64,000 bases of DNA. Origin: a virus. The stretch is from the UHGV virus genome UHGV-0140522. One strand, written 5' to 3'. Below, piece after piece: positions 29,632-53,573 of the stretch; positions within the stretch are counted from its first letter, which is position 1; each line of letters opens with the position of its first letter. A program made the position numbers and the translations under genes. The notes under the pieces were generated by a model that saw nothing but the letters and a program-made list of their open reading frames with translations, ran no database searches and was not told where the DNA came from.

Positions 29632-29666
29632 TAAACAACTTGTTTTCTTGTTGGTTTAATTATCGC
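29632..29666 (-). promoter_or_regulatory. early promoter/operator motif copy
   Basis: TAAACAACTTGTTTTCTTGTTGGTTTAATTATCGC; 14 nt upstream of the start codon on the gene strand. Confidence 0.6.
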
Positions 29667-29734
29667 TACGCGCATAAGGTGTCCAAGCGTTCTGTTCCGG
29701 CAGCTGGTGGCCGGCAGGGAGTCGGAGAGTTGTT

Positions 29735-29770
29735 CGGTAGCCTGGCGGCAAGAGGTGGGTGTTTTTAGCC
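29735..29770. repeat. TAGCCTG-N-AAGAGGTGGGTGTTT element, also present 3 times at 32905-32995
   Basis: cggTAGCCTGgcggcAAGAGGTGGGTGTTTTtagcctg. Confidence 0.45.
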
Positions 29771-29823
29771 TGCGGGAAACAGGATGGTCATTTAAGGCCA
29801 CCAGCGTGGGTGGCCTCGTTCTC

Positions 29824-30105
29824 TTAGTGGAGCAAACCGACGTCGATGGTATCGCCGGAGCCATCCACGCGGATCATCAGCATGGCGAAGGCATTTAGTG
29901 GGTAGCCTGCGTGCCAGTCCGGGAAGCGGTCATCGCGCATGAAGTCGGCAATGTCATAAACGCTGTCCTCAAAGCGGAAGAAACGGGCATCACATTGTTC
30001 GTCCTGTTCAACGTGATCCATTTCCTGCTGCTCTTCCGGCGACAGGTCGAGCCAGGATTCCAGCCATACGTTTTCAGCTTTAGGGGAGATGGTGAAATCG
30101 GTCAT
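29824..30105 (-). CDS. small acidic protein (93 aa from Met at 30105), DNA-mimic/anti-restriction-like composition
   Basis: About 27 percent Asp+Glu; GGAGGA 7 nt before the ATG at 30105. Confidence 0.45.
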   Translation of the reverse strand: MTDFTISPKAENVWLESWLDLSPEEQQEMDHVEQDEQCDARFFRFEDSVYDIADFMRDDRFPDWHAGYPLNAFAMLMIRVDGSGDTIDVGLLH

Positions 30106-30123
30106 GTGCATATCCTCCATGCG

Positions 30124-30158
30124 TAAACATCTTGTTTTCTTGTTGGTGTAATTATCGC
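30124..30158 (-). promoter_or_regulatory. early promoter/operator motif copy
   Basis: TAAACATCTTGTTTTCTTGTTGGTGTAATTATCGC. Confidence 0.6.
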
Positions 30159-30231
30159 AATGTGGATAAGGCAAAAAACATTTTGTTATCGGGAATAAGA
30201 AAATGGCGCGGGGTACGCGCCATTGGAGGGA

Positions 30232-30755: not shown

Positions 30756-31067
30756 TCAGGCTGTCGCCAGGAGAGAGGCACGCTGGATTTCTTGCTGGGC
30801 TACTTTGTTCGCTTCCAGTAGCGCCTGTTCCAGCTCTCCTTCCGGCCAGATGATCTGTTTTGCCATCCACCCTCTTCCACTCTGGCGACGCACACTCATT
30901 ACGTAACGCGTGCGGGAACCATTGTCGAACGAGACCAGCGTCTCTTTGAACAGGCGAATAGCAGTGCCGTTGGCGATGATATCGAGCAGGGTCAGCTGGC
31001 TCATTACGGTTGGTTTTTCTTTACGTGGCTGGCCCGCGCTCAGTTTGGTGATCATCGCGTTTTTCAT
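30756..31067 (-). CDS. hypothetical early protein (103 aa)
   Basis: GGAGTG RBS; motif copy upstream. Confidence 0.5.
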   Translation of the reverse strand: MKNAMITKLSAGQPRKEKPTVMSQLTLLDIIANGTAIRLFKETLVSFDNGSRTRYVMSVRRQSGRGWMAKQIIWPEGELEQALLEANKVAQQEIQRASLLATA

Positions 31068-31078
31068 AATTCACTCCG

Positions 31079-31114
31079 TAAACAACTTGTTTTCTTATTG
31101 GTGTAAATAATACC
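31079..31114 (-). promoter_or_regulatory. early promoter/operator motif copy
   Basis: TAAACAACTTGTTTTCTTATTGGTGTAAATAATACC. Confidence 0.6.
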
Positions 31115-31207
31115 AGCGAGAAAACGGCTACAAAGCATAGCGTTACGGTGCTGCGCTGCCCCGGAGGTTGCAAACAGCAAAAAGCCACCGTGCTGGTGGT
31201 CTCACTC

Positions 31208-31426
31208 TTAATCTTCGTCGTCCGGGAACTCGATGTGTACCGCGTCCACCAGCTCCCGCTGTTCATCTTCACTGAGCAGATGCCAGATATCCTTCCCTTT
31301 GGGTGATTCCCCTTCAGCCGGGACGAACGACCACAACTTGCGGTACAACTCCGGCCCCACAGCATCCAGGCACTCAGCCAAGGAATCCTCGCTCCACACC
31401 TCAACCATCACAGGCATCTTAATCAT
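31208..31426 (-). CDS. small acidic protein (72 aa, MIKMPVMVEVW...)
   Basis: Track ORF 31208..31618 trimmed to the Met 11 nt after the upstream stop; Asp/Glu-rich. Confidence 0.4.
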   Translation of the reverse strand: MIKMPVMVEVWSEDSLAECLDAVGPELYRKLWSFVPAEGESPKGKDIWHLLSEDEQRELVDAVHIEFPDDED

Positions 31427-31436
31427 CTCTTCACCC

Positions 31437-31652
31437 TCACTTCGTTTCTGACGTCGTGCAGTTCCACGCGACGGACATTGGGTTGTCCTCGATATGGAAA
31501 TCAAACGTCCCTTCTCTATATCCTTCAGAGATGAGCGTCGCCACGCGACCAGCAACATCCTGGGAACGGATAACGTCATCGAGGGAGATCTCACACTCGG
31601 AGGACTCTTCCTCGCCACAGAGGGTGATGCTGATATTCAGATGCTTGTACAT
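31437..31652 (-). CDS. small acidic protein (71 aa)
   Basis: AAGGAG RBS; motif copy upstream. Confidence 0.5.
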   Translation of the reverse strand: MYKHLNISITLCGEEESSECEISLDDVIRSQDVAGRVATLISEGYREGTFDFHIEDNPMSVAWNCTTSETK

Positions 31653-31668: not shown

Positions 31669-31703
31669 TAAACACGTTGTTTTCTTGTTGGTGTTATTAT
31701 CGC
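31669..31703 (-). promoter_or_regulatory. early promoter/operator motif copy (between divergent genes)
   Basis: TAAACACGTTGTTTTCTTGTTGGTGTTATTATCGC. Confidence 0.6.
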
Positions 31704-31794
31704 AATAAGAAAACGGGGAAAAAGAATTCCTTAAAGGCTGATGTGCTTGTGCCGATTTATTGCTATGTATGTATCTGGCTAACTCAGAGGGAAT

Positions 31795-32049: not shown

Positions 32050-33030
32050 GCGATTTCACCACCAAAACCCGTAACCCTTTACACTAGATCTGGCTTCCCG
32101 ATATGAGCGTGCGAAGCTGATCTGGTCTCAATGCTCAACTGCGGGATTCACCAATTCCCGCACTATTCAGGTGAATGAGGAAAAGGCATACTCCCGCAGC
32201 CGTCCCTCGCTCTGAACTGGGATGTACCCGTTTCCCGACCGGCAGCCAGCCTTTTCCCTGCGGCGATGCCCCCGTTCCTGAAAAGGAACATGGCCTTTTC
32301 CCTAGATGGCCCGAAGGCTGACCGAAGGGGTGGATAGGGACGTTACGGGGGATGAAAACTATGGCTTGAATTTCTACGGAGAAAGTAGCGATACCCCTCT
32401 TCCCCTTCCCACTTATACCTCCAGTTAAATCTCTACGGATTTTCTCTCCTGTGGACGTGTAAACCTTCCCCCTGATAACGCTCTATACGGCGAGTATTCC
32501 TTTGGGTGAAATGGGTGGTTTGTTCTCTCTACCGGCGTATGTGGTTTCGTTGTTCTTGAGGTGGTTCTTCTCTGTGTTTTCGTCTGGGTTGTTCTCGTCG
32601 TTTTGGTGAGTGTTCTTCTCCGTGTATAGAGTAATGGCATGTGCGCTTCTCTCTTCGTTTACGTGAAGAGATGGAAGTGTGGGTAATGGCAGTAGGGCGC
32701 TTTTGTTGTTCTCCGCATATGAAGTAATGGCGTTCCCTGCTATTCAGGAATTTGCGCTCCCTTTCGGGGTAATGGTGGGTAAACGAGATTGCGACGGTTC
32801 CTGTTCTGGTCTGGGTTTGTCCGGGGTTTCGTTCTGGCTGTTCTTCTCCGTGTATTGGGTAATGGCGTGTAGGGGTTTGCGTGCGCGAGCTGCGTTCTCG
32901 GTTGCCTGGGGAGATTAGGTGGGTGGTCTGTAGCCTGGGGCAAAGAGGTGGGTCTTTTCGGTAGCCTGACAGGAAGAGGTGGGTGTTTCCGGGATTGTGG
33001 GTAATGGCGTCTCTGGTTTTCCTGTGGGTG
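32050..33030 (-). ncRNA. candidate ~1 kb non-coding RNA / repeat-rich regulatory region
   Basis: No credible ORF; strong strand skew; six or more GTAATGGC repeats, a 226-bp internal duplication, three CCCACCTCTT...CAGGCTA repeats; an early motif copy at 33033-33070 is positioned to drive minus-strand transcription with no start codon or RBS after it. Confidence 0.4.
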
Positions 33031-33032
33031 TG

Positions 33033-33070
33033 GTTAACTTGTTTTCTTGTGCCTGAAAACAACTTGTTTA
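33033..33070 (-). promoter_or_regulatory. early promoter/operator motif (double partial copy) at upstream end of the non-coding region
   Basis: GTTAACTTGTTTTCTTGTGCCTGAAAACAACTTGTTTA. Confidence 0.5.
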
Positions 33071-33262: not shown

Positions 33263-33295
33263 TTATTTATTTGTTTTCTTATGGGTGTAATTGGC
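33263..33295 (-). promoter_or_regulatory. degenerate early motif copy
   Basis: TTATTTATTTGTTTTCTTATGGGTGTAATTGG. Confidence 0.35.
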
Positions 33296-34059: not shown

Positions 34060-34380
34060 TCACCAATCCCATGCAGGCAGCCCATCCACCATCTCGGCGT
34101 CGCAATCGAAGTGAACCGCGTCATAGCCGGCATCCAGTACCTTCTGAATGTTCTCGATGGTTTGCCATGTGACGCCGTAATCACGTAGCTCTTCTTTCCA
34201 GTCGTTGCCACGCATACCTGCGCGGACAATCCATCCGTACTCCGTGCCGTGTACCCAATTCAGTCCACGATCTGTTAGTGGGTCGAAACAGATATTAGGC
34301 AGACACTCAGAGTCATGCTGTGTAACGTGGGCGGTGCTGATCACCGCCGTCTTATACGATTCGGTGATTTTCAGCATCAT
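34060..34380 (-). CDS. hypothetical early protein (106 aa)
   Basis: Coupled to the upstream gene (ATGA overlap). Confidence 0.45.
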   Translation of the reverse strand: MMLKITESYKTAVISTAHVTQHDSECLPNICFDPLTDRGLNWVHGTEYGWIVRAGMRGNDWKEELRDYGVTWQTIENIQKVLDAGYDAVHFDCDAEMVDGLPAWDW

Positions 34381-34631
34381 GCCTTCTCCTTTGGAAACAG
34401 AATGTCGGCCGTGTCAGAAATGACATCCCAATTCACACCGACGCTGGCGTCATGGCACTCTTTGATTTTTCGCAAAACCTGAACGCACTGTTTGTCAGTC
34501 AGATCTGGTCGCACTTCACCTACATCTTCCTTGTGCCACATTACCATCAGCAGCGGCTCGTCTTCTGGGTAGTTCTCCAGCTTTTCGATGATGTCTTTTG
34601 CGGTTCCGAACATGATTAACTCCTTAAACAA
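34377..34631 (-). CDS. hypothetical early protein (84 aa)
   Basis: AAGGAG RBS; motif copy upstream. Confidence 0.5.
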   Translation of the reverse strand: MFKELIMFGTAKDIIEKLENYPEDEPLLMVMWHKEDVGEVRPDLTDKQCVQVLRKIKECHDASVGVNWDVISDTADILFPKEKA

Positions 34632-34657
34632 CTTGTTTTCTTGTTGGCGTTATTATC
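34624..34657 (-). promoter_or_regulatory. early promoter/operator motif copy
   Basis: TTAAACAACTTGTTTTCTTGTTGGCGTTATTATC. Confidence 0.6.
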
Positions 34658-34698
34658 TAAAATAACAAAAGGCAGAAAACAAGATGTTTAAGGGATGA

Positions 34699-34965: not shown

Positions 34966-35152
34966 TTTTTCGCCCTCAATACTGTATATACAAACAGTAG
35001 TATTTATTACTATACCGGTCAACTTTGCGGGTTAAGGGAATAACAAGGTGGTGAAAACAATTTGTTTCGGCACTTGAGATTTTGCAAACCGCACATACAT
35101 GAAAAGCGGCAATTTTTGAAACCTGATTTGACCCAAGTGAAAGGAGGAAACG

Positions 35153-35356
35153 ATGAAGACCTATGATCGCAACCGTAACGCTATCACTACCGGCAGCCGA
35201 GTGATGGTGGCAACGAATGGTGCAACGGGAGTCATCAAGGAAATCTGCGGAGAAGGCAAATCAGAAGAACAATTACGCCGTTCTGACTGCGTGTCTATCG
35301 AAGGTGTGGAGGGTCTGTTCTGCCCAATGGATTTAGTTCGCCTGGGATTCCATTAA
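35153..35356 (+). CDS. hypothetical small protein (67 aa)
   Basis: AAGGAGGAAACG RBS; plus strand. Confidence 0.5.
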   Translation: MKTYDRNRNAITTGSRVMVATNGATGVIKEICGEGKSEEQLRRSDCVSIEGVEGLFCPMDLVRLGFH

Positions 35357-35384
35357 TTTAATAATCTAGAAAACAAATTGTTTA

Positions 35385-35404
35385 AGGCCACTACTGTGGC
35401 CTTC
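35385..35404. terminator. hairpin between convergent genes (possible bidirectional terminator)
   Basis: AAGGCCACTACTGTGGCCTT; stem resembles the hairpin upstream of nrdA. Confidence 0.35.
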
Positions 35405-35406: not shown

Positions 35407-35778
35407 TTACTCTGCGATAAGCGATCCAATCATCGCCTGTAGCTCTCGTTCTTTTTCTTTGGCTACACGGAGTAATTCGGCATTTACATGACGTTGCAGC
35501 TTATCCATTACGCGGAACGACGGACGGCGCATGACGCTCTCGTCGATGGCTTTGGTATTCAAGCTAATAAGATGCCCGAAGTGGTTGAAGCCAGCCCCGA
35601 CGAACACTTCATATAGCTGGGCATCGCGCTCAAACAGAGCGATCCCATTTCGCACCTCAAGCAGCGTTCCTTCCTCAATAAGCGTATCCAGCGCCTTATC
35701 CCAGACCGGACAAAAGCGATAATTGAAACCTTCCAGTAATGCTGTAAAAAACAGCGAAACGGCATTACCCAACTTCAT
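35407..35778 (-). CDS. hypothetical protein (123 aa)
   Basis: Three-gene minus-strand cassette with 35781..36071 and 36059..36748. Confidence 0.45.
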   Translation of the reverse strand: MKLGNAVSLFFTALLEGFNYRFCPVWDKALDTLIEEGTLLEVRNGIALFERDAQLYEVFVGAGFNHFGHLISLNTKAIDESVMRRPSFRVMDKLQRHVNAELLRVAKEKERELQAMIGSLIAE

Positions 35779-35780
35779 AG

Positions 35781-36071
35781 TTACTCTTCCTTACTCCTTG
35801 CTCTGTTAGCCTGCACTTCCTTAGCCAGCTCGTAGGTAATTTTGCACGGCACAATCATCGCCCAGCCTTTTTCGTGGCTGTTAATCACCTGCTGAACATG
35901 GCCGTCTGTAATGGGCAGATCCGGCAACTGTTTAAAAACTTCCATCTGCTCATGGATATGCAGAAACCACCTTGCCAGCTCCATCTGCTCACCGCGGGTG
36001 AGGGGATTATCCAGCGGGGACTTAACAAAAGCGGAGACGCGCTCGACAGGCAGATCATTCATGCCGCGCAC
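35781..36071 (-). CDS. hypothetical protein (96 aa)
   Basis: Start overlaps the upstream gene. Confidence 0.45.
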   Translation of the reverse strand: MRGMNDLPVERVSAFVKSPLDNPLTRGEQMELARWFLHIHEQMEVFKQLPDLPITDGHVQQVINSHEKGWAMIVPCKITYELAKEVQANRARSKEE

Positions 36072-36748
36072 CTCTCTGCTTTATCCTGCAATTCGCGGAC
36101 ATACTCGACCAAAGAGCCGCCTGGTGGGACCTGGCATTCCTCAACTAACTGGAAGTAGATGTCTGCGGCCGCGCGTGTGTTCGAGCCTTTGTTTAGCTGC
36201 TCTTCGCGCAGCGCATCACGTTCGTTGATCAAACGAACACACTCGCCGTTACGCTGATCAACAACGGCCTCAAGTTCAGCGATACGTTCGCCTGGCGTCT
36301 TGCCTTCTTTGCGCTGGATGGTGACGGTAAACTCGCCCATTTCAGGAACGTTGTATCCCAGCTCCAGGTAATTTCTGGCGCCGCTGCGGACGAACTCACC
36401 TGCGAACATGGTGGCGAACATCGCAGAGGCCATCTCTCCTTTGAAAAGCGACTCCAGAGCTAACGGAGTGCCGGCAGACAGAGCCTCTTTTGCTGTGTCC
36501 ATTGCGTCCATGAACCGGTCGAACTCATTGGCGCGTTTCTCAAGGTCTCTCCACTGCTGGCTCCAACGGCGTGCCAGATGTTCGATAAAAACCTGCGCCG
36601 ATTCATCAAAGTTACCTTCGAACGTCACAAGCTCCTTGTCGATTTTGATGGTTCCGGCAGGCGTTCCTTCGTTCCCCTGTAGCACTAAATTAAATGGCAG
36701 CTTCGCCTGATTAACGCTGGCGAATGTAATTCTCGATTTTTCGCTCAT
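36059..36748 (-). CDS. hypothetical protein (229 aa)
   Basis: First gene after the methyltransferase. Confidence 0.45.
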   Translation of the reverse strand: MSEKSRITFASVNQAKLPFNLVLQGNEGTPAGTIKIDKELVTFEGNFDESAQVFIEHLARRWSQQWRDLEKRANEFDRFMDAMDTAKEALSAGTPLALESLFKGEMASAMFATMFAGEFVRSGARNYLELGYNVPEMGEFTVTIQRKEGKTPGERIAELEAVVDQRNGECVRLINERDALREEQLNKGSNTRAAADIYFQLVEECQVPPGGSLVEYVRELQDKAERCAA

Positions 36749-36784
36749 GTGTTCACCTCTGATAAAGTGGCTCTATTCTTACAT

Positions 36785-36814
36785 AAATTAGGTAAGTATT
36801 TACCTATCATTTTA
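36785..36814. promoter_or_regulatory. AT-rich palindrome family member
   Basis: aaatTAGGTAAGTATTTACCTAtcatttta overlapping the methyltransferase stop. Confidence 0.45.
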
Positions 36815-38510
36815 CGCGTTTGAAAACGTATACGCTTACAGTGATTCCGGTGTCTTCAAACTCGTCAGTAAACGACTTCCCTTTGGCATAAACGTAATTA
36901 TCCAGCGTCATCCAGTTCAGAGCTGGCGCATCACCCGGCAGTACTGCCACCAGTCGCCCGCCGACTTTAAGATGCTCCAGCGCGGTCAGCGTATGCTCTC
37001 TGTGACGGCCAAGAGAGTAGGGCGGGTTCATGACGATTTTGTCGAACTGATAGCCTGCGTTGTCCTCAGACCACTTCATGAAGTCGCAGCAGACCGTATT
37101 TGTGTACCCCTTGCCAATCAGGATATCAGCGAAGAGAGGTGCGACTTCTATGCAGGTAACGTCTTCCGGATTGGCGTCGATGCAGGCCAACAGATCTCCG
37201 CGCCCGGCTTCAGGCTCCAGCAGCTTCTCACCTGACTTCAGCTCGATGGCTCTGGCAACGTACTCCGCTATCAAACGCGGGGTAGGGTAGAACTGGTGTG
37301 ATTTTGTATCCGGTATTAAGCCAGTGGCCACAATCGTATTTAGCGTATGACCGATCTCATACGGGAACTGCCAGTGCTTTTTCTCCTGCACACCGCCAAT
37401 GAAGTTCAGTGTGCGCTCAAGCTCTTCCACCTGTGACTTCTGTAGGTTGGAATCAGAGAAGTACCAGACGCCTTTGTCTTTGCTGAATCGCCCGTCGCGC
37501 AGCGCGGTACGAACCGGCTCGGAGATCGTCTTCTGGATTAACCCGAACTCTTTTGGTGCCGGTGTTTTGGGTGCAGTACGGCATGGCGCCGGGATTGCTG
37601 CAGGCATACTGTAAGCCAGCACCTCATTCAGCTTCCAGGCCACGTCAGGATGTATTTCAAAGTGAACGTTGCCGTTCTTGAACATCTTCACGCGCATCAG
37701 GTTTCCGTCGACATTCATCCAGTCACCGGTCTGGCAGTCGTTTGCCCGGTACGCAGCTGATAGCATCTCAGTTGTGCGGTTGATGGTGATGAACTCTTTG
37801 TGCGCGAAGAAATGAAGCATGACGCGCAGATCGTCGATGTAGTCCTCTTTCCGGTAGTTCACGCTCACGCTGTCCCGCCAGAACTCGGAAATGAAGTTGG
37901 CGATGATCAGACGCTCGCTAAAGCCGTTCGTCTTATTGGTCTTGTGGGCAGGACTCAGCGCCTTAAACAAGCCATACACGCGCTCAGAGAGATATTTGTG
38001 CCTGTCATTCAGCAGATTGAGCATCGTGGGGATGACCGTTTCTGCTTTGAACTCCGGCACGCCAACGAACTCCTTAACCTTCATCTGGTAGCCGGTTCTG
38101 TCAGTCCTGATGGTTTCCTGTTTGCCTTCGATGAACTGCTCACGCCACTCGTCGCGGCGGGAAGCTGGCATGATCAGCAGAACGTTTGTCATATCCGTGA
38201 CCTTCTTCCAGTACTCGGCCCAGATATTCTGTTTCACCCATTCAAGGTCGACCTTGTCCAGCCAGGCTCTGTTAAAGCGTGTGCGCTCGTCATCCGGCCG
38301 GTGGTTGAGTCGCAGTAGGCGGTTAATCATGTTGTGGCGTTCGTCGCCATAAATGAAGTCGTGAACCTGATGCATGAATGCGATCTCTTTCTCGCACTCG
38401 GCCACAATTTCGTGGATGACGTTCATTTCCTGCCGGTAGTCGATATCAGTGTTTGGGGTGATAGCGTCAATGATAGAAAGAGCTGTATTCATGATTGCAC
38501 CATTAAACAA
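36807..38510 (-). CDS. orphan N6-adenine DNA methyltransferase fused to a ~400-aa N-terminal domain of unknown function
   Basis: C-terminal motifs QFYPTP, EPEAGRGDLL, NPPYS (NPPY catalytic motif IV); N-terminal 400 aa without recognisable motif; no adjacent restriction endonuclease. Confidence 0.6.
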   Translation of the reverse strand: MFNGAIMNTALSIIDAITPNTDIDYRQEMNVIHEIVAECEKEIAFMHQVHDFIYGDERHNMINRLLRLNHRPDDERTRFNRAWLDKVDLEWVKQNIWAEYWKKVTDMTNVLLIMPASRRDEWREQFIEGKQETIRTDRTGYQMKVKEFVGVPEFKAETVIPTMLNLLNDRHKYLSERVYGLFKALSPAHKTNKTNGFSERLIIANFISEFWRDSVSVNYRKEDYIDDLRVMLHFFAHKEFITINRTTEMLSAAYRANDCQTGDWMNVDGNLMRVKMFKNGNVHFEIHPDVAWKLNEVLAYSMPAAIPAPCRTAPKTPAPKEFGLIQKTISEPVRTALRDGRFSKDKGVWYFSDSNLQKSQVEELERTLNFIGGVQEKKHWQFPYEIGHTLNTIVATGLIPDTKSHQFYPTPRLIAEYVARAIELKSGEKLLEPEAGRGDLLACIDANPEDVTCIEVAPLFADILIGKGYTNTVCCDFMKWSEDNAGYQFDKIVMNPPYSLGRHREHTLTALEHLKVGGRLVAVLPGDAPALNWMTLDNYVYAKGKSFTDEFEDTGITVSVYVFKRVK

Positions 38511-38538
38511 ATTGTTTTCTTGTTGGTGTTATTTTCCC
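38503..38538 (-). promoter_or_regulatory. early promoter/operator motif copy upstream of methyltransferase
   Basis: TTAAACAAATTGTTTTCTTGTTGGTGTTATTTTCCC. Confidence 0.6.
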
Positions 38539-38633
38539 AAACTAGAAAAGGCGTAAAAGCAGCATTCACAGGCGTTGCAGCTGATTTAAGGCGTAAAAAT
38601 GGGGGCTTTCGCCCCCTGTCGGCAGGTGAGAAA

Positions 38634-39233
38634 TTAGTGGTGTACGTGCTGCGTTTTGTGCGGCTGTTTGTTCAGGTCGTGGCGATGCGTAAGCTCGCGC
38701 ATCATGTCTTCAAGACGACTCTTGGTGTCGTCAAGCTGGTCGGCCATTGCCCCCAGCAGCTGGCGAACGGCCATCGGATCGTCGCTGTTCAGCTCAGGCA
38801 TTTTGAACCCAGACTGTGAAGACATCAGTTTGAAAGCGGCCAGCAACATCGCCAGAGAAGACTTCAACCCGGCGATTTCACGATCTTTGCTGGCGTTGGT
38901 TTCATCTGCCTTGACTGAATCCGGTGAGCACTTCGGCTTGCTTACCATTTCCAGAGTTGCCTGAAGTTTGTCGGCGCGTTCTTTCTCTTCCAGATACGCT
39001 TCGCCGAAATGACGCGCCAGCATCACAATTTCAATAGGATCATCAATCATGCTAGAGAACTTGAGAGCGCTGAAAAGGCGGTCGATAGGGGAGGCGTAGT
39101 CTTCGTGACCAACCACAAGACCCATGATCTCAACCAGTTCGGCCGCACCAACTTTTTTAATCACGCTTTCAACTTTGGCATTAGTTTTTTTGCATTTTTC
39201 GCACATGTGTTTTTTCCTTATGTTTTTAAACAA
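38634..39233 (-). CDS. hypothetical protein (199 aa) with N-terminal CxxC
   Basis: MCEKCKK near the N-terminus; His-rich C-terminus. Confidence 0.45.
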   Translation of the reverse strand: MFKNIRKKHMCEKCKKTNAKVESVIKKVGAAELVEIMGLVVGHEDYASPIDRLFSALKFSSMIDDPIEIVMLARHFGEAYLEEKERADKLQATLEMVSKPKCSPDSVKADETNASKDREIAGLKSSLAMLLAAFKLMSSQSGFKMPELNSDDPMAVRQLLGAMADQLDDTKSRLEDMMRELTHRHDLNKQPHKTQHVHH

Positions 39234-39262
39234 GTTGTTTTCTAGATGGCGTTATTATGGCG
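39226..39262 (-). promoter_or_regulatory. early promoter/operator motif copy
   Basis: TTAAACAAGTTGTTTTCTAGATGGCGTTATTATGGCG. Confidence 0.55.
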
Positions 39263-39323
39263 TGACTGAAAAGGTGGGCAAACGCTACGTAAAGGCGGAC
39301 GCCCACGCTGAAGGTCTTCATTG

Positions 39324-39521: not shown

Positions 39522-40016
39522 TCAGTCACAGCAGAAGGAAGATCCGGAGTTGCAGGTCGAGCTGGAATCGTGTCCAGCAGCATCCCATCCAGAGAGACAG
39601 GGGGTCGTTCTGGCAGTGGTGTCGTCTGCAGGGTTGTAGTGGAAGTAGTTGTGTCCGGTATCAACAGACTCTGACCGGCTGGTACGGCTACCGCTGCCAG
39701 GGTTGCTAAAATTACTCCGTAGGCCATTGGCTTCAGTCGATTTCGTTGAAAATTTTCCATGAGAACTGTCCTTGTGTGCCTGGGATTCACGCAACACACG
39801 AGAGGCGACGGAATCACGCACCTTCTCCATGCCTACTGTCGCGCCCAGATTTGCTATGGCGGTAGCTTGCGCATCAATGCGCTTCTCCAGCTCAAACACT
39901 CGTTCTTCCAGTTCCGCAAGGCGTGCAGAAACACAACCGCTAAACAGCTCGGCCAGAACCAGGCGAATTGAACGGGGACGTTTATTGAAAGAAGTGAAAG
40001 GCGTTTGACGTGCCAT
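39522..40016 (-). CDS. hypothetical protein (164 aa) with N-terminal coiled coil; second overlapping frame 39509..39817 encodes a signal-peptide/Pro-Thr-rich product
   Basis: LAELEERVFELEKRIDAQATAIANL heptads; the overlapped frame reads MAYGVILATLAAVAVPAG...TTTSTTTLQTTPLPERPP. Confidence 0.35.
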   Translation of the reverse strand: MARQTPFTSFNKRPRSIRLVLAELFSGCVSARLAELEERVFELEKRIDAQATAIANLGATVGMEKVRDSVASRVLRESQAHKDSSHGKFSTKSTEANGLRSNFSNPGSGSRTSRSESVDTGHNYFHYNPADDTTARTTPCLSGWDAAGHDSSSTCNSGSSFCCD

Positions 40017-40140
40017 TTGGATTCCATTCAGTGTCAGAAAGAGTTGCGGCTGGCCAAGCCAGCCGCCTTTTGGCGTTCCATCCTAGAACAGTACCTAACC
40101 GGTACTTCGTCATCCTGACGAACGGTAAGATACCTGATTT

Positions 40141-40172
40141 AAAATGATAGGTAAATACTTACCTATCATTTT
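40141..40172. promoter_or_regulatory. 32-bp near-perfect palindrome of the GGTAAGTACTTACC family at the left edge of the cargo island
   Basis: AAAATGATAGGTAAATACTTACCTATCATTTT. Confidence 0.5.
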
Positions 40173-40410
40173 GTGACAAAAATCCAATGTCACGCTTGTG
40201 AGGCATATCGGCTGCGGAGTAGGCGGCGATCAGAGCAGGCCGTTCAATAGATCTGCTTTGAGAGAGGATTGGACCAAGCCCTAGATAACGAGAGAGCACG
40301 GTGCTAATACCCAAGACGACAACAGACGAGTTCATGGCAACATTTTGGAAGGTATCTTCGTATCATGATGTGGTTAAATAGACACAATTTAACCCAATGG
40401 AATTTTAGCC

Positions 40411-41013
40411 ATGCTAACCTTCTGGCACGAATATTCAGATCTCATCTCCGCATTTTTAGCGGCTCTTTTAGGTGGCTGTTTCACGATGAAAGGAGTGACA
40501 GCTCAGGTGAAACAGCAGGCAAAACAGCAGGCAACAGCGGCCAGAGAGAAGCGTATAACAACGCTATTGGGTGTCAGAGAGGAAATAGACTCACTGATTA
40601 AGTTGTATAAGGCCAGAATTGAAGAGGAAATCAAACAATACGACCGGAACTCACCGTTCGATAACATTTTCCCCATTACTCAAAACTACTTCACTTTCTA
40701 TGAAGCTAACTCGGCATCTCTACCTGAAGTTCATAGAGAAACACTATCAAAAATTGTGGCTTTTTATACAAGCGCAAGAAGCCTAATTGATTCCTATCGC
40801 GGTAATAATGCCCTTATCGAAAGGCTGGACTCCACGCAGGTTGCCAGTGACATTACTGGCAACAAAGAGCATCTTGCACACCTGAAAAGATACACAATCC
40901 TAGCCACAGAGTACGGCCGCGGATTAATGATGATTCATGAAGAGGTCATGCTGCGCTATAAACAGGTTATAGAAGCCATCGATGGTGAAATCTCGCAGCT
41001 ACAATGCAGTTAG
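40411..41013 (+). CDS. membrane-anchored hypothetical protein (200 aa)
   Basis: N-terminal transmembrane helix LISAFLAALLGGCF followed by a helical cytoplasmic domain; own promoter region; opposite strand to the phage genes. Confidence 0.5.
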   Translation: MLTFWHEYSDLISAFLAALLGGCFTMKGVTAQVKQQAKQQATAAREKRITTLLGVREEIDSLIKLYKARIEEEIKQYDRNSPFDNIFPITQNYFTFYEANSASLPEVHRETLSKIVAFYTSARSLIDSYRGNNALIERLDSTQVASDITGNKEHLAHLKRYTILATEYGRGLMMIHEEVMLRYKQVIEAIDGEISQLQCS

Positions 41014-42518: not shown

Positions 42519-43667
42519 TTACCTTAAGTTTGCTTTGAAAAATTGCTCAAATTTGGCAAATGGGATCTTACCCGCAACGTTGTCGTACAGATCAACATGG
42601 TTTGCCCCAGGGACAATCACTAACTCTTTCTCTTTGCTGCCGATTGCCTTAAAGGCATCTTCAGCAAAATAGCGTGAATGGGCTTTTTCGCCGGTCACGA
42701 TGAGTGTAGGGATAGTAACTTCATTGGCGTAACTCAGCAGCGGCATATTCATAAATGACAGCGGCATGGTTGCGTTCCAGGCACCGGTTGAGTTGACCGA
42801 ACGCTCATGGAAACCACGCGGCATGCGGTAATAATCAAAGAACTCTTTCAATACTGGGTTAGGATTCGCGGGCAGAGTTTCCGGCAGAATACGATCGGAA
42901 GCGGTGACGTTGCCCTTCTCATCAACATAAATGTCATGCCCGCCTGGCGCGAAAGCGCCATTTTCCGCATCCTTCCAGCGCTGCGTGTTCAGATACTGCA
43001 ATACGGCACGACGATCGGCAGTGGTATAGCGGTCTTTGCCATCGCCCACGCCATGCCCCATCGCACGGCTCATGTCATACATCACGCTGGTCGCCACCGC
43101 CTTGACACGCGTGTCCATCGCGGCGTCGTTTAAGGCCATGCCGCCCCATCCGCAGATACCGAGCAGCCCGATACGGTTGCGATCCACCTCTTTTTGCAGG
43201 CCTAAGAAATCAACCGCCGCGCTGAAATCCTCGGTGTTGATATCCGGAGATGCGACGTTGCGCGGGTAGCCGCCGCTTTCGCCCGTGTATGAAGGGTCGA
43301 AAGCCAGAGTGACAAATCCCTGTTCAGCCAGCGTCTGCGCATACAGGCCGCTGGATTGCTCTTTCACCGCCCCGAAGGGGCCGCTAACAGCAATAGCTGC
43401 CAGCTTGCGATCACCACGATCCTTCGGGATGTAGAGATCCCCGACTAAGGTGATCCCGTATCGGTTCGGAAAGGTCACCTTACGGTGATCAACTTTCGTG
43501 CTCTCAGCAAAAGTTTTATCCCATTTTTCGACCAGCGAAACGGGCGCGTTCGGATTGGCTGTATCAGCGTAACTCATATTTGTGACTCCACTTAATGATG
43601 CGCATAACAACAGGGCGGGTATCGCAGTTGTCAATTTTTGGGTGAAAGCAGTCATCAAAATCCCCTT
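42519..43667 (-). CDS. secreted alpha/beta hydrolase (dienelactone hydrolase/YcjY-like)
   Basis: Signal peptide MKGILMTAFTQKLTTAIPALLLCASLSGV; nucleophile elbow GICGWGG; track ORF 42519..43733 has an upstream extension. Confidence 0.65.
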   Translation of the reverse strand, partial: KGILMTAFTQKLTTAIPALLLCASLSGVTNMSYADTANPNAPVSLVEKWDKTFAESTKVDHRKVTFPNRYGITLVGDLYIPKDRGDRKLAAIAVSGPFGAVKEQSSGLYAQTLAEQGFVTLAFDPSYTGESGGYPRNVASPDINTEDFSAAVDFLGLQKEVDRNRIGLLGICGWGGMALNDAAMDTRVKAVATSVMYDMSRAMGHGVGDGKDRYTTADRRAVLQYLNTQRWKDAENGAFAPGGHDIYVDEKGNVTASDRILPETLPANPNPVLKEFFDYYRMPRGFHERSVNSTGAWNATMPLSFMNMPLLSYANEVTIPTLIVTGEKAHSRYFAEDAFKAIGSKEKELVIVPGANHVDLYDNVAGKIPFAKFEQFFKANLR

Positions 43668-43825
43668 CATAAAACGTGCCAGAAACAGGTTTCCTACGGA
43701 CAACGCTGCTGTGCTTTGTTGCAATGCGCACATTATAGTTAGCAGAAATAGTACTGATTAGAGGGTGAAAAATGCTAAGATTGATAACATATTGTTCTGA
43801 ATTGTGATGCGGCAGCAGGGGAAGG

Positions 43826-44713
43826 ATGATGGCGAAACGGGAAAACTATAACGATCTCTATCTGTTTATGCAGGTCGTGCGAGAAGGGAGTTTTACTGCC
43901 GCCGCGCAGAGGCTTGGCCTGGCGCAGTCAGGAATTAGTCGTGCAGTGCGCGAGCTGGAAGAACGACTGGGCGTGCAGCTTCTGGTGCGTACCACGCGCA
44001 AGTTATCGCTCACCCATGCCGGCGAGTTGCTCTATCGAACCGTCGAATCTGGATTTGACGCTTTAGATATGGGGCTTGCCACGCTGGCCCATTATCGCCA
44101 TACCCCATCGGGTACGGTCCGTATTAATGCCAGTCAGCACGCCATTGATAAAGTGCTGCTGCCGAAGCTGGCGGTGTTTAAACAACGCTACCCAGATATT
44201 CGGCTGGAGCTCATCAGCGAAAGCCGGTTTGTCGATATTATTGCTGAGCGCTTCGATGCCGGTATACGTCTGGGCTCGGAAGTAGGTAGCGGTATGGTCG
44301 CTGTGCGCATTTCGCCCGATATGGAGATGGCCATTGTCGGCACGCCCGAGCACTTTCGTCGCTACGGATTTCCGCAAACTCCCTCCGATTTAGTTATTCA
44401 TCCCTGCATCGCTTACCAGTTTGGAGACGGCAGCCTGTATGCATGGGAACTCAATCAAGACGGTAAAAAGATAACCCATCAACCTCAGGGACAATGGGCC
44501 TTTGCTGACAGCTATATGGAAGCCAAAGCCGCCCGGCTAGGCCTGGGACTGGCTTATGTTCCGGAGGAATTAGTTTCTGATGATATAGAACAGGGGGCGC
44601 TGATCAGAGTTTTGCAATGCTACAGTCAGCGCCTGGAAGGTTCATATCTCTATTATCCGCACCGCAATGTGTCACCCGCTCTAAGAGCGGTTATCGATAC
44701 ATTGAGAATTTAA
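43826..44713 (+). CDS. LysR-family transcriptional regulator
   Basis: N-terminal HTH LYLFMQVVREGSFTAAAQRLGLAQSGISRAVRELEERLG, LysR substrate-binding fold length; divergent from the hydrolase. Confidence 0.85.
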   Translation: MMAKRENYNDLYLFMQVVREGSFTAAAQRLGLAQSGISRAVRELEERLGVQLLVRTTRKLSLTHAGELLYRTVESGFDALDMGLATLAHYRHTPSGTVRINASQHAIDKVLLPKLAVFKQRYPDIRLELISESRFVDIIAERFDAGIRLGSEVGSGMVAVRISPDMEMAIVGTPEHFRRYGFPQTPSDLVIHPCIAYQFGDGSLYAWELNQDGKKITHQPQGQWAFADSYMEAKAARLGLGLAYVPEELVSDDIEQGALIRVLQCYSQRLEGSYLYYPHRNVSPALRAVIDTLRI

Positions 44714-45335
44714 GGGATAAAGATGAGGTGGTTCGCAGGCCTGGGTAATAGTTGGAAAACAACGTCCGCTCCTGGCACATTGAAGACATTACGATGGGCG
44801 ATTTTTCCCCTCACGCGTGTGCGTAAATATTAAAATTTTTTCTAGAAAAGAAAAACTTACTTCCCAGAACAGGTTTTAATAAAACCTGAACTGAACGAAC
44901 GAAGTGAGTGAAGTTCACCTCGAACGAAGTGAGAGGTTGTCTTTTCAGGTAATACTCTCCCAGGGAGGTGAGTACAAAATTCCCTCACCAACCTGGTCGT
45001 TACATAACCTGAAAAGTTATGACCTAAGTCTACTGCCAGCTTAGGCTTGGGAAGTTATGGATGACAGCACCCCAGAACCGAGATCTTCCCACACTTTATG
45101 AAGGGGAGTACTGGATTCAACCTCTCGAAACACTCCAGACTCGACAATCATAAAGTGACCTTTCTCTCTGCCCACTTTGGTTCCCCCTTCCCCAACCCCT
45201 AAACGGTGCTGGTTCTACGCTGGTAGTGAGCTTTTTTAAACCTGACGCCAGTGACGCTATCCCCCACCCATCAGGTCGAGCTGCCGGAATCAATCCGGAA
45301 AGCGGGTAGATTTTATCACTGGCGATCTGCGTTTT

Positions 45336-50120: not shown

Positions 50121-51236
50121 TCACACCGCCACTGGAACCTTGATCCACGGAAGAGGGCTGTAGCCGCACACCTGCACACCTTCCCATTTGAAGTCGTCCA
50201 GTTCGGCCCATTCATGCGGGAAGATGACAACCGGGTCGGACTCTTTGGGCGGCTCGCGCTTCATCAGTTCCTCAACGCCTTCCATGTGGTTGTCGTAGAG
50301 ATGAACGTCAAAGCCAAAATGCACGAATGCGCCAGCCATGTGGCCGGTGATCTTCGCGAGGAAGTGGGTGAGAATGCCGTAACCGGCGATGTTGAACGGC
50401 ATACCAACAAAGGTATCGACGCTGCGCTGCACCAGGCATGAGTTCAGAATGCGTTTCGGGATGCCCAGCTCGTCCAGCATGTTCTCAGTAATGCCGCCAT
50501 CTCTTTCCAGAAGACACAGCATCTGGGTGTAAATGGACTCGTGGCCGTGGCGGTTGTGCTGAATGCCAATATCGGTGGCCATCGTCAGTCGGGTCTCAAA
50601 GTCCAGCTCGCGACTCCACAGTGAAAACACGAAATGGCATGGCGGCAGCTTCATATCTTCCAGTTCGCCAACATTCCAGGCATTCAGCAGGATGCGACGA
50701 TCTGTCGGGTTGGTGCGAAGCGTGTGAACGATACGCTGTAGCTGGTCGATTTCACGGGACAACACAACGCGATCTTCGCTTACGCCCAGATACCCCTCGA
50801 CCTTGTACCCGCGCTCACGGAACGTGTCGATTTTGCTCAAATACTCGCTATGGCTCACGATGCGGGTGTCTTCCCACCGACGCCATTGCTTGCCATAGAC
50901 CGGGCCTAAATCGCCATTTTCATCAGCCCAGGCATCCCAGATTTTGACGCCATTGTCTTTCAGGAACTGGATGTTGCCCGTTCCTTTGAGATACCACTCC
51001 AGCTCAACCAGTAACGGCTTCAGATTGACGGCTTTTCCGGAGATAAGTGGAACAGAGCCGCCCGTCAGCATGTAGTAGGAAGGGACATATGAAACGCTTT
51101 TTGTGCCGGTTCCGGTGCGATCACCAGCGTGAACGCCAGTGTTGAGCACCGTTTCAACCACTTTGGCATACGAACCACTGGCAAACTGACCGTTCGTAAA
51201 GTCTCGATTCAGTAGGATAGACAAAATCAACCTCAC
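50121..51236 (-). CDS. thyA: thymidylate synthase (ThyA family) with ~50-aa insertion
   Basis: Catalytic KLPPCHFVFSLW and CLVQRSVD...GMPFNIAGYGILTHF motifs; 371 aa vs ~264 for E. coli ThyA. Confidence 0.75.
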   Translation of the reverse strand: MRLILSILLNRDFTNGQFASGSYAKVVETVLNTGVHAGDRTGTGTKSVSYVPSYYMLTGGSVPLISGKAVNLKPLLVELEWYLKGTGNIQFLKDNGVKIWDAWADENGDLGPVYGKQWRRWEDTRIVSHSEYLSKIDTFRERGYKVEGYLGVSEDRVVLSREIDQLQRIVHTLRTNPTDRRILLNAWNVGELEDMKLPPCHFVFSLWSRELDFETRLTMATDIGIQHNRHGHESIYTQMLCLLERDGGITENMLDELGIPKRILNSCLVQRSVDTFVGMPFNIAGYGILTHFLAKITGHMAGAFVHFGFDVHLYDNHMEGVEELMKREPPKESDPVVIFPHEWAELDDFKWEGVQVCGYSPLPWIKVPVAV

Positions 51237-51390
51237 ACAAGATAAGTAAGTACATACACATTATTTTATACAAGTTTATCTGTCAGAAGTGTGTAAGGCT
51301 AGGAGGGGAGTAAAAAAAATGGTGGCTCTTAGGCCACCATTGCAATGAGCAATTAAGAACTTGGACAATAAAACACGCCAAGGCAATATA

Positions 51391-51420
51391 TAATGATAAG
51401 TAGATACTTACAATTATTTT
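51391..51420. promoter_or_regulatory. degenerate AT-rich palindrome family member
   Basis: taatgATAAGTAGATACTTACaattatttt. Confidence 0.3.
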
Positions 51421-52283
51421 TTTACCATCTCGTAAAGAGATGATGATTTCGCCTTCTCAACAAAGCGAGTCAGATCCACATCGCTGTAGGTCGGGGATTT
51501 GAGGATCTTGCCATCAGAAATTCTGAAGCCAATCATCATGTCAGTCCCTTCAGCATGGCGGAAGCCCAGGTCTTCCTTGTCGTATTTGCAATTCTCTACC
51601 GCCACACGACGCTCTTCGGCGTCAGCCGGCCACAGCTTGGTCATGTTGGAGCGATGGATTTCTGCCACCAGCTCAACAATATCGATACCGAGAAAATCAG
51701 CCAGGCGGTAGGTCATCATGCAGGCAACGTAGATTTTGTTCATCACGCGGCGCAGCTCCTGCACCAATTCGGAATCGCTTATCGGCTTCGCTTCTAGTTT
51801 GTCAGCCAGCGCATTCAGCATTAATGCAGCTTCTTTTGCTTCTTCAAACGGGATGGCCATATCGTCAAAGACCGTGTTGCCCGGAACCATGATGGTGTGG
51901 ATGAAGCGATCAACACTCTGCTCTTGGGTGTAGTAGCTCATGCCCGTAGAGATTCCGCCTTTGATGGCCACCATTGTGCCGACGCCCACGTAAAGGAAGT
52001 CAGCCATCGCGTCCAGCAGTGCCGTCATATCCCCATTTTTGGCTGCCGGGATGCCCTCGGTAACAGCTTCTTCGTGGATCAGCTTGGCACGCAGACGCAG
52101 TAATGCCGGATCTGGAATGGCACGGCGTGGGTGCTGAAACAGTGTGTGGAACTGGTCAACCATCAGGTAGATGCTTTCCGTTGCCTTGCCAAAACCAGGA
52201 TTCAACTCGTAAGGCTCTGGCTTAAATCCCACGAGTTTGTCTGCGGCAAGTTTCAGATGATCGGTCAGTTTCGTAAATTTCAT
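51414..52283 (-). CDS. all-alpha NTP pyrophosphohydrolase-like protein (MazG/dimeric dUTPase-like), putative
   Basis: EExxE...DxxD-like acidic helices (LIHEEAVTEGIP...DAMADFLYV; ELVAEIHRSNMTKLW); start taken at MKFTKLTD. Confidence 0.3.
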   Translation of the reverse strand: MKFTKLTDHLKLAADKLVGFKPEPYELNPGFGKATESIYLMVDQFHTLFQHPRRAIPDPALLRLRAKLIHEEAVTEGIPAAKNGDMTALLDAMADFLYVGVGTMVAIKGGISTGMSYYTQEQSVDRFIHTIMVPGNTVFDDMAIPFEEAKEAALMLNALADKLEAKPISDSELVQELRRVMNKIYVACMMTYRLADFLGIDIVELVAEIHRSNMTKLWPADAEERRVAVENCKYDKEDLGFRHAEGTDMMIGFRISDGKILKSPTYSDVDLTRFVEKAKSSSLYEMVKK

Positions 52284-52365
52284 GTCTTCTTTCTTTCCTT
52301 TGGACTTCATTTGATACGTCAATTGTGACCCAGCAGCGCCAGGCCACAAAGTGGTTAAACTCGGC

Positions 52366-53508
52366 TTAAAGGTCTGCGAACTGGCTCAGGCCGGAGCGAT
52401 CGACAGCGGAGTCAATCTGGCCAACGAGGTAGTTGCTTTGTTCAGCTTCCTGCGGAGCGATCTGCAGGGTGTCTGACAGCAGCCATTTGTTCATCCATAC
52501 CAGTGGATCGTCTTTGATTTCCGGGAACAGCGGTCGCAGCCCAAGACGACGCATTGCCAGGTTGGTGCGGTATTTCACATAGCTTTTGAGGATGTCGGCA
52601 TTCAAGCCAATCATTGCGCCGTCTTTAAACAGATAGTCAGCCCAGCGCATTTCCTGCCCGGCCACGTCCATCATGGTCTGATAGATGAAGCTCTCTTCTT
52701 CTGCGGCAATCATCTTCCACATCAGACCTTCACGACCGGTACGCATAAAGCGGATCATGCGTTCAGTACCTTCGCAATGCAGAGCCTCGTCGCGCGCGAT
52801 GAAGCGCATGATCTTCGTGTTGCCCTCCAGCAGCTTCCGCTCACCAAAGGCGAACGTACATGCAAAGCTCACGTAGAAGCGAATCGCCTCCAGTGCATTC
52901 ACTGACACCAGTGTGCGGAACAGCTGGCGCTGGAGAGGGTAGGGCTTGCCATCAAACTCGCTGACATACAGCCGTTCAAATTCGTCTTCGCCAAGATGCT
53001 GGCGAGCGCAGGTCATTTCGTACAGTCTGTCATATTCGCTTGAGATGCTTACAGCCCGGCTGATGATCTCTTCGTCCGTGACGATGCCGTCGAAAACGAT
53101 GCTCGGGTCATCCACCATACCGCGGATAATGTGGGTATAGCTGCGGCTGTGAATCGTCTCAGAGAACGACCAGGTCTCAACCCATGTCTCCAGCTCAGGA
53201 ATGGAGATCAGCGGCAGTAGTGTTGCGTTTGGACTGCGACCCTGAACGGAATCCAACAGCGTCTGGTAACGCAGGTTGCTCAGAAAAATATGGCGTTCGT
53301 GCTCTTGCAGCTTGGTATTGAAGTCGATGCGGTCAGTGGTAATGTCGACTTCTTCAGGGCGCCAGAAGAACGAGAGTTGTTTCTCAATCAGCTTTTCGAA
53401 GTCACGGTACTTTTGCTGATCGTAGCGTGCTACGTTGACAGACTGGCCGAGGAACATAGGTTCCTTCGTTGCGTCGTTAGCGCCCAAACGGAAAGTAGAA
53501 TAAGTCAT
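52366..53508 (-). CDS. nrdB: ribonucleotide reductase class Ia beta subunit
   Basis: Strong identity to E. coli NrdB blocks including [15 protein letters not shown]. Confidence 0.9.
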
Positions 53509-53537
53509 GTGTTTCCCTCTGAATGTTATCGAGTGGC

Positions 53538-53573
53538 TTTAAACAAATTGTTATCTTATTGGTTTAAATAAGG
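53538..53573 (-). promoter_or_regulatory. early promoter/operator motif copy upstream of nrdB
   Basis: TTTAAACAAATTGTTATCTTATTGGTTTAAATAAGG. Confidence 0.55.

Follow-up and report, generated by a model that had tools for sequence, protein, structure and literature searches.

Phage-plasmid window and dispersed palindrome

Which function is served by a short palindrome that recurs in front of scattered genes of one phage-plasmid? This question is raised by a stretch of 64,000 nt from the UHGV virus genome UHGV-0140522 (in the following called the window; about 48 kb of the replicon lie outside it). A first-pass annotation had noticed a motif of about 35 bp upstream of minus-strand genes and had interpreted it as the operator of a repressor regulon. 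We come to a similar view: with a probability of roughly 0.6, the motif represents a dispersed set of DNA operators for a regulator encoded by the element itself, which most likely acts as a repressor. Judged from its sequence, the window is part of an SSU5-type phage-plasmid. Salmonella phage SSU5 aligns to window 29-40 kb with 95% identity in reverse orientation, and a 112.6-kb Citrobacter plasmid shares 99.5% identity with window 29.0-35.5 kb, a stretch matched by 769 plasmid records.

The motif is far more frequent than expected by chance. The originally quoted 35-mer, searched with at most three mismatches, was found five times in the window (29632, 30124, 31669, 34625 and 38504) and in none of 100 shuffles. 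With at most one mismatch, AAACAAnTTGTTT occurs at 14 sites against 0.19 expected (20769, 20794, 29633, 30125, 31080, 31670, 33057, 34626, 34677, 35055, 35371, 38505, 39228 and 53541). An unbiased enumeration of all gapped palindromes with 6-nt arms ranked AAACAA-N1-TTGTTT first, with nine exact copies. The exact core AAACA-N3-TGTTT is present 12 times in the window and every one of these copies is intergenic; the same holds for all 14 exact cores of the complete SSU5 genome, of which 11.6% is non-coding and for which shuffles give 0.1. With 13 site clusters in the window and the 14 cores of SSU5, the motif is dispersed over one replicon.

The main coordinates given in the first-pass annotation were right to within 1-2 nt, and the motif is indeed promoter-proximal, in the order -10 hexamer, CCAACAAGAAAACAAGTTGTTTA, ribosome-binding site. 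The statement that it precedes at least ten minus-strand genes at a distance of 10-25 nt has to be revised to eight genes with a full module, 11-31 nt from the start codon. Moreover, one copy belongs to a gene on the plus strand (ydfZ), and the range of 29632-53573 was too narrow: the regulon reaches the terminase small-subunit gene terS at 20.7 kb, and SSU5 carries additional copies before a parA-like gene, dnaB and the SSU5_049 gene (annotated "porphyrin biosynthesis protein"), all outside the window. The gene set, which had been termed "early", also includes nrdB, ydfZ and terS, and in SSU5 parA and dnaB.

Structure of the promoter module

Eight copies share one module, cTTTT..GCCTTTTCT..(TGn)GATAAT - 10/11 nt (aACACCAAC) - AGAAAACAAnTTGTTTA - 11 to 31 nt - ATG, in which a weak -35 region is followed by the GCCTTTTCT box, an often TGn-extended -10 element, the operator and the ribosome-binding site. 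The -10 element reads GATAAT, TATTAT, GAAAAT or CATAAT in seven of the eight modules, four of these seven being preceded by TGn. Because the -35 hexamers are poor, a generic sigma-70 scan calls only one of the eight. As the three centre bases vary, the operator is best described as the dyad GAAAACA-N3-TGTTT(A/TC), a unit of 17 nt in which the information content peaks, above that of the -10 element. Of 37 distinct copies from nine loci, 34 have a spacing of 10-11 nt between -10 element and operator; the distance from the operator to the start codon is variable and ranges from 11 to >80 nt. The 17-nt unit is slightly asymmetric and its orientation tracks the direction of transcription, including the single plus-strand copy before ydfZ.

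A second class of operators had been missed, together with the cassette layout to which it belongs. In this class the 17-nt unit is inverted and its centre lies exactly 51 bp upstream; within the window it is present at 34674-34690 and in degenerate form at 30174-30190, and pairs with the same 51-bp distance are found in SSU5, Cyrano, PhiR41 and Kp4727. The upstream operator often lies directly 3' of the terminator hairpin of the preceding gene, so that each gene forms a cassette of terminator, operator, promoter, operator and gene. The sites at terS and at 33.05 kb differ in that they consist of two copies 25 bp apart and are devoid of the GATAAT module. If transcription starts about 7 nt after GATAAT, the downstream dyad would be centred at about +14 and the upstream one at about -38.

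Conservation and variation among relatives

The palindrome is invariant across hosts, from Salmonella to a Nissabacter-like metagenomic contig (L009). Its position varies. In a relative from K. quasipneumoniae (L132) the promoter-linked copies, eight in number, are all found upstream of the -10 element (GTAAACAAnTTGTTTAC, centre at about -38) and no downstream copy is present; in the relatives L014 and L044 the full dyad is mostly located upstream, too. The AAACA-N3-TGTTT dyad was not found in a Providencia relative (L131, plasmid CP096299). In the distant syntenic region of this plasmid (21000-29000), a -10 element followed by the leader box ATCAAnAAGAAA stands before several genes.

Modules also border variable genes. 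The SSU5 genes 099-101 are flanked by two direct copies of a hairpin plus palindrome (L001, 30602 and 32625); the window is without these genes and has kept one copy (35368-35403), which looks like loss or gain of a cassette through recombination between repeated modules.

Candidate regulators

According to the first-pass annotation the window contained no repressor gene. However, three candidate regulators are encoded in the plus-strand block adjoining the regulon (26735-27262, 27586-28236 and 25971-26249). The three co-occur in about 800 plasmids and, since they are found together everywhere, presence/absence profiling is uninformative; with regard to binding of the motif, all of them are candidates only.

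The protein encoded at 27586..28236 (+; 216 amino acids, SSU5_120-like) combines a coiled coil with a winged helix; it belongs to an orphan family and is a predicted DNA binder. A Hidden Markov Model (HMM) profile search of 1.84 billion proteins retrieved only 23 clusters and linked no known family. Its AlphaFold2 model (mean predicted local distance difference test score, pLDDT, 84) consists of a long N-terminal helical hairpin and a C-terminal part with the order helix-strand-helix-helix-strand-strand, as in winged-helix domains. Many of the top Foldseek matches in the PDB are winged-helix DNA binders (RTP, TubR, ORC/Cdc6, MarR and PadR types), with probabilities up to 1.0 and E-values of only 0.03-0.2. 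Four lineages with the GAAAAC-type dyad share one putative recognition helix, YTQANQLI, down to an overall identity of 49%. The helix reads YTQVNQLT in L132, where the operator flanks are GTAAAC, and FTQTNQAI in the Providencia relative without the dyad. By predicted fold and by this covariation, the protein appears as the best candidate binder.

The second candidate is an FljA-family protein of 175 amino acids with two tandem Sm/Hfq-like domains (26735..27262, +). Its residues 6-172 match positions 1-170 of 170 of PF03614 (E 1e-96), and it is about 35% identical to true FljA. The gene is the last one of a helicase operon (24409-27262, +), where it is preceded by genes for the helicase, a 92-amino-acid protein and a lipoprotein; the operon has a TATAAT promoter of its own without a copy of the motif, and no flagellin gene was found near 26735-27262. 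The FljA-like gene is kept in 13 of 13 SSU5-like phage records and in about 830 plasmids. Work of Yamamoto and Kutsukake from 2006 is said to have placed the mechanism of FljA on fliC mRNA at the post-transcriptional level. As FljA acts after transcription on this mRNA (PMC2652032), direct binding of the double-stranded dyad by the window protein seems unlikely. The FljA-like homologue of Cyrano, CYRAN_114, is expressed in lysogens with a value of 18 in an operon reaching 114 (PMC9928086 supplement). The fliC 5' untranslated region (5'UTR) of E. coli K-12 contains no copy of the motif.

The third candidate is the SSU5_123-like protein of 92 amino acids mentioned above (25971..26249, +), which has a weak likeness to ribbon-helix-helix proteins. 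In Cyrano lysogens, expression of its homologue is 12-fold over background (PMC9928086 supplement). An assignment to the ribbon-helix-helix fold was rejected: the alignment to CopG is in the right register and weak (E 0.031, probability 1.6%), and comparison with Arc and with PDB profiles gave no match. The protein was ranked low, since lineages with one and the same operator differ in its putative DNA-facing strand. Two genes annotated elsewhere as repressors were discarded as source of the cognate factor. The "repressor-like" gene SSU5_116 is not present in the window though the motif is intact there, and the "putative repressor" CYRAN_45 of Cyrano lies within an integrase insertion absent from SSU5.

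The DNA around the first two candidate genes carries a repeat of its own. T(A/G)TAAGG(G/C)T occurs in five same-strand copies between 26842 and 27366, in the 3' half of the FljA-like gene and the region upstream of the 27586 gene; three of the five are exact and are the only exact copies of the window. Strong conservation of the region upstream of the 27586 gene extends to L014, the relative with 49% identity (blocks ATTTATTTAGGGAACACCTTC and TTATTTCTAAGACTTT). Judging by these features, 26842-27366 looks like a separate switch region.

Mode of action and alternative explanations

Five lines of evidence point to a site that acts as DNA operator rather than as RNA element. The spacing to the -10 element is fixed despite the variable distance to the start codon. 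The upstream copies lie outside the transcript of their own promoter. In L132 they are the sole promoter-linked copies, and in L014 and L044 the full dyad is mostly upstream. Changes within one half-site are never compensated in the other (AAACAAGATGTTT, AAACAACGTGTTT and AAACAAATTGGTT). Finally, the leader RNAs are unstructured: seven leaders fold at -1 to -5 kcal/mol, no better than shuffled sequences (z -1.2 to +1.75), and the Rfam covariance models gave no match at gathering score in the whole window. Repression is favoured, because a dyad at about +14 suits occlusion of RNA polymerase. The transcriptome of a lysogen of Cyrano, a relative inducible by ciprofloxacin, was used for comparison. 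In E. coli LF82, the genes CYRAN_110, 106, 105, 101 and 87 read 6.7-12.8 against a median of 9.8, and CYRAN_111, which is also located behind a module, reads 25.5 (PMC9928086 supplement); the assignment of modules to genes was made in the present analysis. The low reads are found despite near-consensus -10 elements.

Intergenic, promoter-registered and family-conserved dyads in excess over chance, found in two positions and orientations, are best read as the dispersed operator set of one regulator. To this we add by inference where transcription starts, that the effect is repressive and which protein binds. The motif would then be the operator part of a conserved transcription-unit cassette of SSU5-type phage-plasmids. 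Such a cassette would often begin with the terminator hairpin of the upstream gene, continue with an optional inverted operator at about -38, the GCCTTTTCT box and a sigma-70 -10 element with poor -35, and be completed, after 10-11 nt, by the 17-bp dyad (A)GAAAACA-N3-TGTTT(A) at about +14, a short unstructured A-rich leader, the ribosome-binding site and the gene. An element-encoded, sequence-specific, dimeric DNA-binding protein would occupy the dyads; with a distance of 51 bp, which corresponds to about five helical turns, two dimers would probably bind together across the -10 element. The occupied dyads would block RNA polymerase and thereby keep about a dozen separate accessory, nucleotide-metabolism and replication genes off together, and release of repression would switch on the set jointly.

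Several observations weigh against this reading. Most lytic genes of Cyrano are equally low in the lysogen, and parA carries a copy of the motif, yet is expressed 5-fold above background (PMC9928086 supplement), so that the transcriptome is consistent with repression and no proof of it. The call of a promoter rests on sequence, with only one of the eight modules passing the sigma-70 scan. The covariation of recognition helix and operator is based on three lineage contrasts only. The left arm of the dyad with its upstream flank, (A)CCAAnAAGAAAACAA, is kept in L014, L132 and the Providencia relative where the right arm was lost; part of the motif therefore has a role which the dyad model does not explain, and the leader box may have a role of its own in promoter escape, in translation or as RNA target. 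A dyad near -38 at a promoter lacking a -35 element is the classic layout of activator-dependent middle and late promoters of phages. With respect to the best candidate binder, its homologue in Cyrano, CYRAN_113, does not exceed the detection floor in lysogens and goes up along with the lytic genes (PMC9928086 supplement), and therefore is no maintenance repressor unless trace amounts suffice. The 27586-28236 protein may instead be a lytic-phase regulator, e.g., for the shut-off of early genes, which fits better; in this case a separate maintenance repressor would act beside it.

The position near -38 in L132 and L014, which is used by phage activators such as Mor and C of Mu, together with the poor -35 hexamers, would suit positive control, in which an activator recruits RNA polymerase to the -35-less promoters of a middle-gene regulon. 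The winged-helix candidate, off in lysogens, rises together with regulon genes in macrophage 6-h samples (PMC9928086). Similarly, an intrinsically optimised combination of -10 element, start and leader could do without any regulator, as the Providencia relative keeps the leader box without the dyad. We regard both variants taken together as rather unlikely: the best-conserved copy of the SSU5 lineage, at about +14, is unworkable for an activator, the TGn-extended -10 elements in more than half of the modules of the window can work without a -35 region, and the dyad is better conserved than the -10 element, although a plain promoter has no need of it. Doubtful, too, and slightly less probable, is control at the RNA level, by which the FljA-family protein would bind the shared 5' leader AACAAGAAAACAAGUUGUUUA as single-stranded RNA and block ribosome access or destabilise the mRNAs. 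This protein is the only one of the window that belongs to a recognised regulator family, its counterpart acts post-transcriptionally, its gene is retained throughout the phage records and plasmids and CYRAN_114 is expressed in lysogens; the leader is first A-rich (AAC AAG AAA), then U-rich and unstructured, and its box survives the loss of the dyad's right arm. On the other hand, the inverted copies at -38 cannot be part of the transcript, 51-bp pairing and fixed -10 spacing represent a DNA geometry, dyad symmetry is useless for the recognition of single-stranded RNA, and no covariation of a hairpin is seen. Furthermore, the palindrome is unchanged in L014 while the FljA-like protein falls to 34% identity, the fliC leader of E. 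coli K-12 lacks the motif, and the protein might merely silence host flagellin.

Both levels could also be combined. Two layers of control would then act on one sequence block, the winged-helix protein on the DNA dyad and the FljA-like protein on the 5' leader; in such a scheme the tandem Sm/Hfq-like protein would bind the A-rich, then U-rich leader of about 20 mRNAs and repress their translation during lysogeny in the plasmid state. We give this combination a low probability, about one chance in ten. If true, an Hfq-like fold would have become a dedicated lysogeny regulator, and the persistence of the leader box beyond the dyad in distant relatives would be explained. Least probable, and in our view improbable, is an element of recombination or cassette boundaries (a mobile or mosaic junction) with only incidental link to promoters, or a site for a host nucleoid protein (IHF, Fis). 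The former accords with modules at the borders of variable cassettes, such as the flanks of SSU5 099-101; recombination between repeated promoters is, however, an expected by-product, the register to the -10 element is strict, the orientation always follows transcription, and neither transposase genes nor target duplications nor terminal repeats are associated with the sites. A host factor would agree with the invariance of the motif from Salmonella to L009 and with two mismatches to the IHF consensus. However, the motif is not known to fit any of the consensus sequences of IHF, Fis, KdgR and sigma-28 well, and its absence from the Providencia relative argues against a pan-enterobacterial factor. 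We therefore favour the dispersed operator set for an element-encoded regulator.

Individual sites

Most minus-strand sites between 29 and 40 kb are full modules. The first (29632..29700) consists of the operator AGAAAACAAGTTGTTTA at 29632-29648, a 10-nt spacer, the -10 element GATAAT at 29659-29664 and a weak -35 TTGGAC, and serves an SSU5_117-like gene (29618..29139). At 30124..30192 the downstream operator (30124-30140) and a TGC-GATAAT -10 element are combined with the degenerate upstream operator (30174-30190, centres 51 bp apart), and a terminator hairpin lies just upstream (30202-30224); the gene served is SSU5_115-like (30105..29827). The spacer of this promoter contains a perfect DnaA box, TTATCCACA, at about 30160-30172 (-), in place of which Cyrano has TTATCTACA. 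The module at 31079..31147 (operator 31079-31095, TGG-TATTAT at 11-nt spacing) precedes an SSU5_113-like gene (31067..30759), and the one at 31669..31737 (TGC-GATAAT) precedes SSU5_111/112-like genes (31652..31211); its operator at 31669-31685, AAACAACGTGTTT, carries the uncompensated half-site change. The best-preserved module (34625..34692) has the downstream operator at 34625-34641, GATAAT, a GCCTTTTGT box and a complete inverted upstream operator at 34674-34690, centres 51 bp apart, and serves genes for DUF1380 and DUF5983 proteins (34613..34063). Further modules are located at 38504..38572 (operator 38504-38520, TGG-GAAAAT, GCCTTTTCT box), before a DUF4942 methyltransferase operon (38492..35410), and at 39227..39295 (operator 39227-39243, CATAAT, -35 TTGCCC), before an SSU5_094-like gene (39206..38637); the latter is the only copy also called by the generic sigma-70 scan. 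In the nrdA-nrdB spacer lies a diverged module (53540..53608, -); its operator, AGATAACAATTTGTTTA, occupies 53540-53556, and the nrdB start (53508) follows after 31 nt.

Four copies of the first-pass annotation turned out to be of a different kind. The one listed at 33033 is a half copy on the minus strand, AAGAAAACAAGTT, about 25 bp downstream of an inverted full palindrome at 33054-33070; in this arrangement (33030..33070, -) a conserved CGCTCCCGTTGCGTTATA precedes both sites, which lead into non-coding DNA rich in repeats. The partial copy at 33263 is a half copy only, with the leader box AAGAAAACAA at 33271-33280 (-) and no inverted arm. The partial copy at 35042 corresponds to the ydfZ copy on the plus strand: the module (35030..35068) has its operator at 35052-35068 after GGAATAAC and serves ydfZ (35153-35356), whose leader is about 85 nt long. 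The partial copy at 35367 is a leftover operator of the upstream type (35368-35384), fused to a terminator hairpin GGCCAC..GTGGCC (35384-35403).

The stretch downstream of the 33030-33070 pair (32540-33020, -) appears to be non-coding, and its transcribed strand is C/A-rich and G-poor. It contains six copies of GCCATTACCC, a 32-nt unit repeated three times (32611, 32704 and 32839) and three tandem units of 30 nt (32898-32988); conservation of the stretch extends to SSU5, Cyrano, Kp4727 and L009. Possible interpretations are iterons, an origin or centromere, or a GGA-rich non-coding RNA, and the plus-strand open reading frame (ORF) annotated as SSU5_108 may be spurious.

At terS, the first gene of the late structural operon below 20.7 kb, two operator copies 25 bp apart (20768-20784 and 20793-20809, -) lie in the leader of the gene (20728..), about 40 nt upstream of it. 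They are followed directly by a conserved hairpin, GAGCGCAAGGATGCGCTC, and then by TGAGTGTTTT (about 20745-20766, -). PhiR41, Kp4727 and L009 retain the stem despite changes in its sequence; the hairpin may be an attenuator or terminator before the late operon.

Genetic surroundings

Mapping of SSU5 genes by tblastn placed nrdAB, nucleotide-metabolism genes, methyltransferases and many small genes of unknown function on the minus strand, read from 53.5 to 29.1 kb, and a plus-strand block at 24.4-28.5 kb. A non-coding gap of 500 bp (28600-29130) with GCGCGTTTT-like and GGCG(T/A)GA repeats separates this block from the minus-strand regulon and is also found at the equivalent position of Cyrano. 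Two neighbouring genes with ParB_N domain at 22981-24344 are followed by genes of ABC-type ATPases and the gene of an 88-amino-acid protein (20927-21190), which gave a faint match to the LexA DNA-binding domain (E 0.18); the terS operator pair lies shortly past the end of this last gene. Not present in SSU5 is a cargo insertion at 40000-44800 with genes for a major facilitator superfamily (MFS) transporter (41148-42350), an alpha/beta hydrolase (42519-43733) and a divergent LysR regulator (43826-44713). A second dispersed palindrome of 18 bp, TAGGTAAnnnnTTACCTA, occurs four times in the window (18813, 36789, 40148 and 46396); three of the four sit inside the gaps that separate minus-strand genes or at the margin of such a gap, and at 46396 there is an overlap with the start annotated for a methyltransferase gene. 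This palindrome could serve as a further operator or form a hairpin.

Significance and comparison with known systems

The family has a wide reach. About 770-830 plasmid records of PLSDB, among them plasmids from Klebsiella, E. coli, Enterobacter and Salmonella, match the region or the three candidate regulators; of the Yersinia plasmids also included, largely from Y. pestis, 62 match all three candidate regulators and 55 match the DNA region. A defined operator, a promoter module and three candidate regulators make up a directly testable circuit. In addition, the operator is a marker for the annotation of transcription units in SSU5-type plasmids, and the repeated terminator-operator-promoter modules suggest a route by which cassettes are gained and lost. 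In the open-access literature we found no paper that contains the 13-mer or describes regulation or the lysis-lysogeny circuitry in the SSU5 group.

The likeness to a P1 C1-type regulon proposed in the first-pass annotation holds as functional analogy only. Shared are one inferred regulator, many scattered promoters on a phage-plasmid of about 100 kb and the pairing of some sites. SSU5-type and P1-type elements form separate phage-plasmid groups (PMC7969092). The motif described here is a dyad of unrelated sequence. The C1 operators of P1, in contrast, are asymmetric 17-mers, ATTGCTCTAATAAATTT, and this sequence has no match in the window with up to three mismatches. No C1-like protein was recognised among the ORFs compared, namely 42 proteins of the window with Pfam and smaller subsets with PHROGs and NCBIfam.

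FljA, the repressor of phase-1 flagellin, is matched by the window protein over the full PF03614 model, which makes the latter a candidate to act on the 5' leader. Unlike FljA, it is not encoded beside a flagellin gene, its identity is about 35% and the fliC leader is free of the motif; a link to the motif is conjectural.

A closer resemblance is seen to the global regulators of plasmids, KorA/KorB of RK2, ArdK/StbA/KorA of R388 and omega of pSM19035, for which short palindromic or repeated operators are distributed over about 10-20 promoters per replicon and tie together maintenance, replication and accessory genes, including parA. The sequence of the operator differs, and the element described here is also a phage. 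No KorA or KorB homologue was recognised in the window, where the two ParB_N proteins are without recognised helix-turn-helix (HTH) domain and belong to the ABC-ATPase cluster. The geometry of the sites recalls OR/OL of lambda and the lac operator O1 (+11) with its auxiliary operator: dyads of 17 bp overlap the -35 region or lie at about +11 to +14, and pairs on the same helix face imply cooperative binding. In contrast to a single immunity region, the sites are spread here over about 30 kb before single-gene cassettes, and no HTH-S24 protein of the CI/Cro type was found in the window. By analogy, the nearest parallels in logic would be the global regulons of plasmids (KorA/KorB, omega), combined with the paired operators of lac and lambda.

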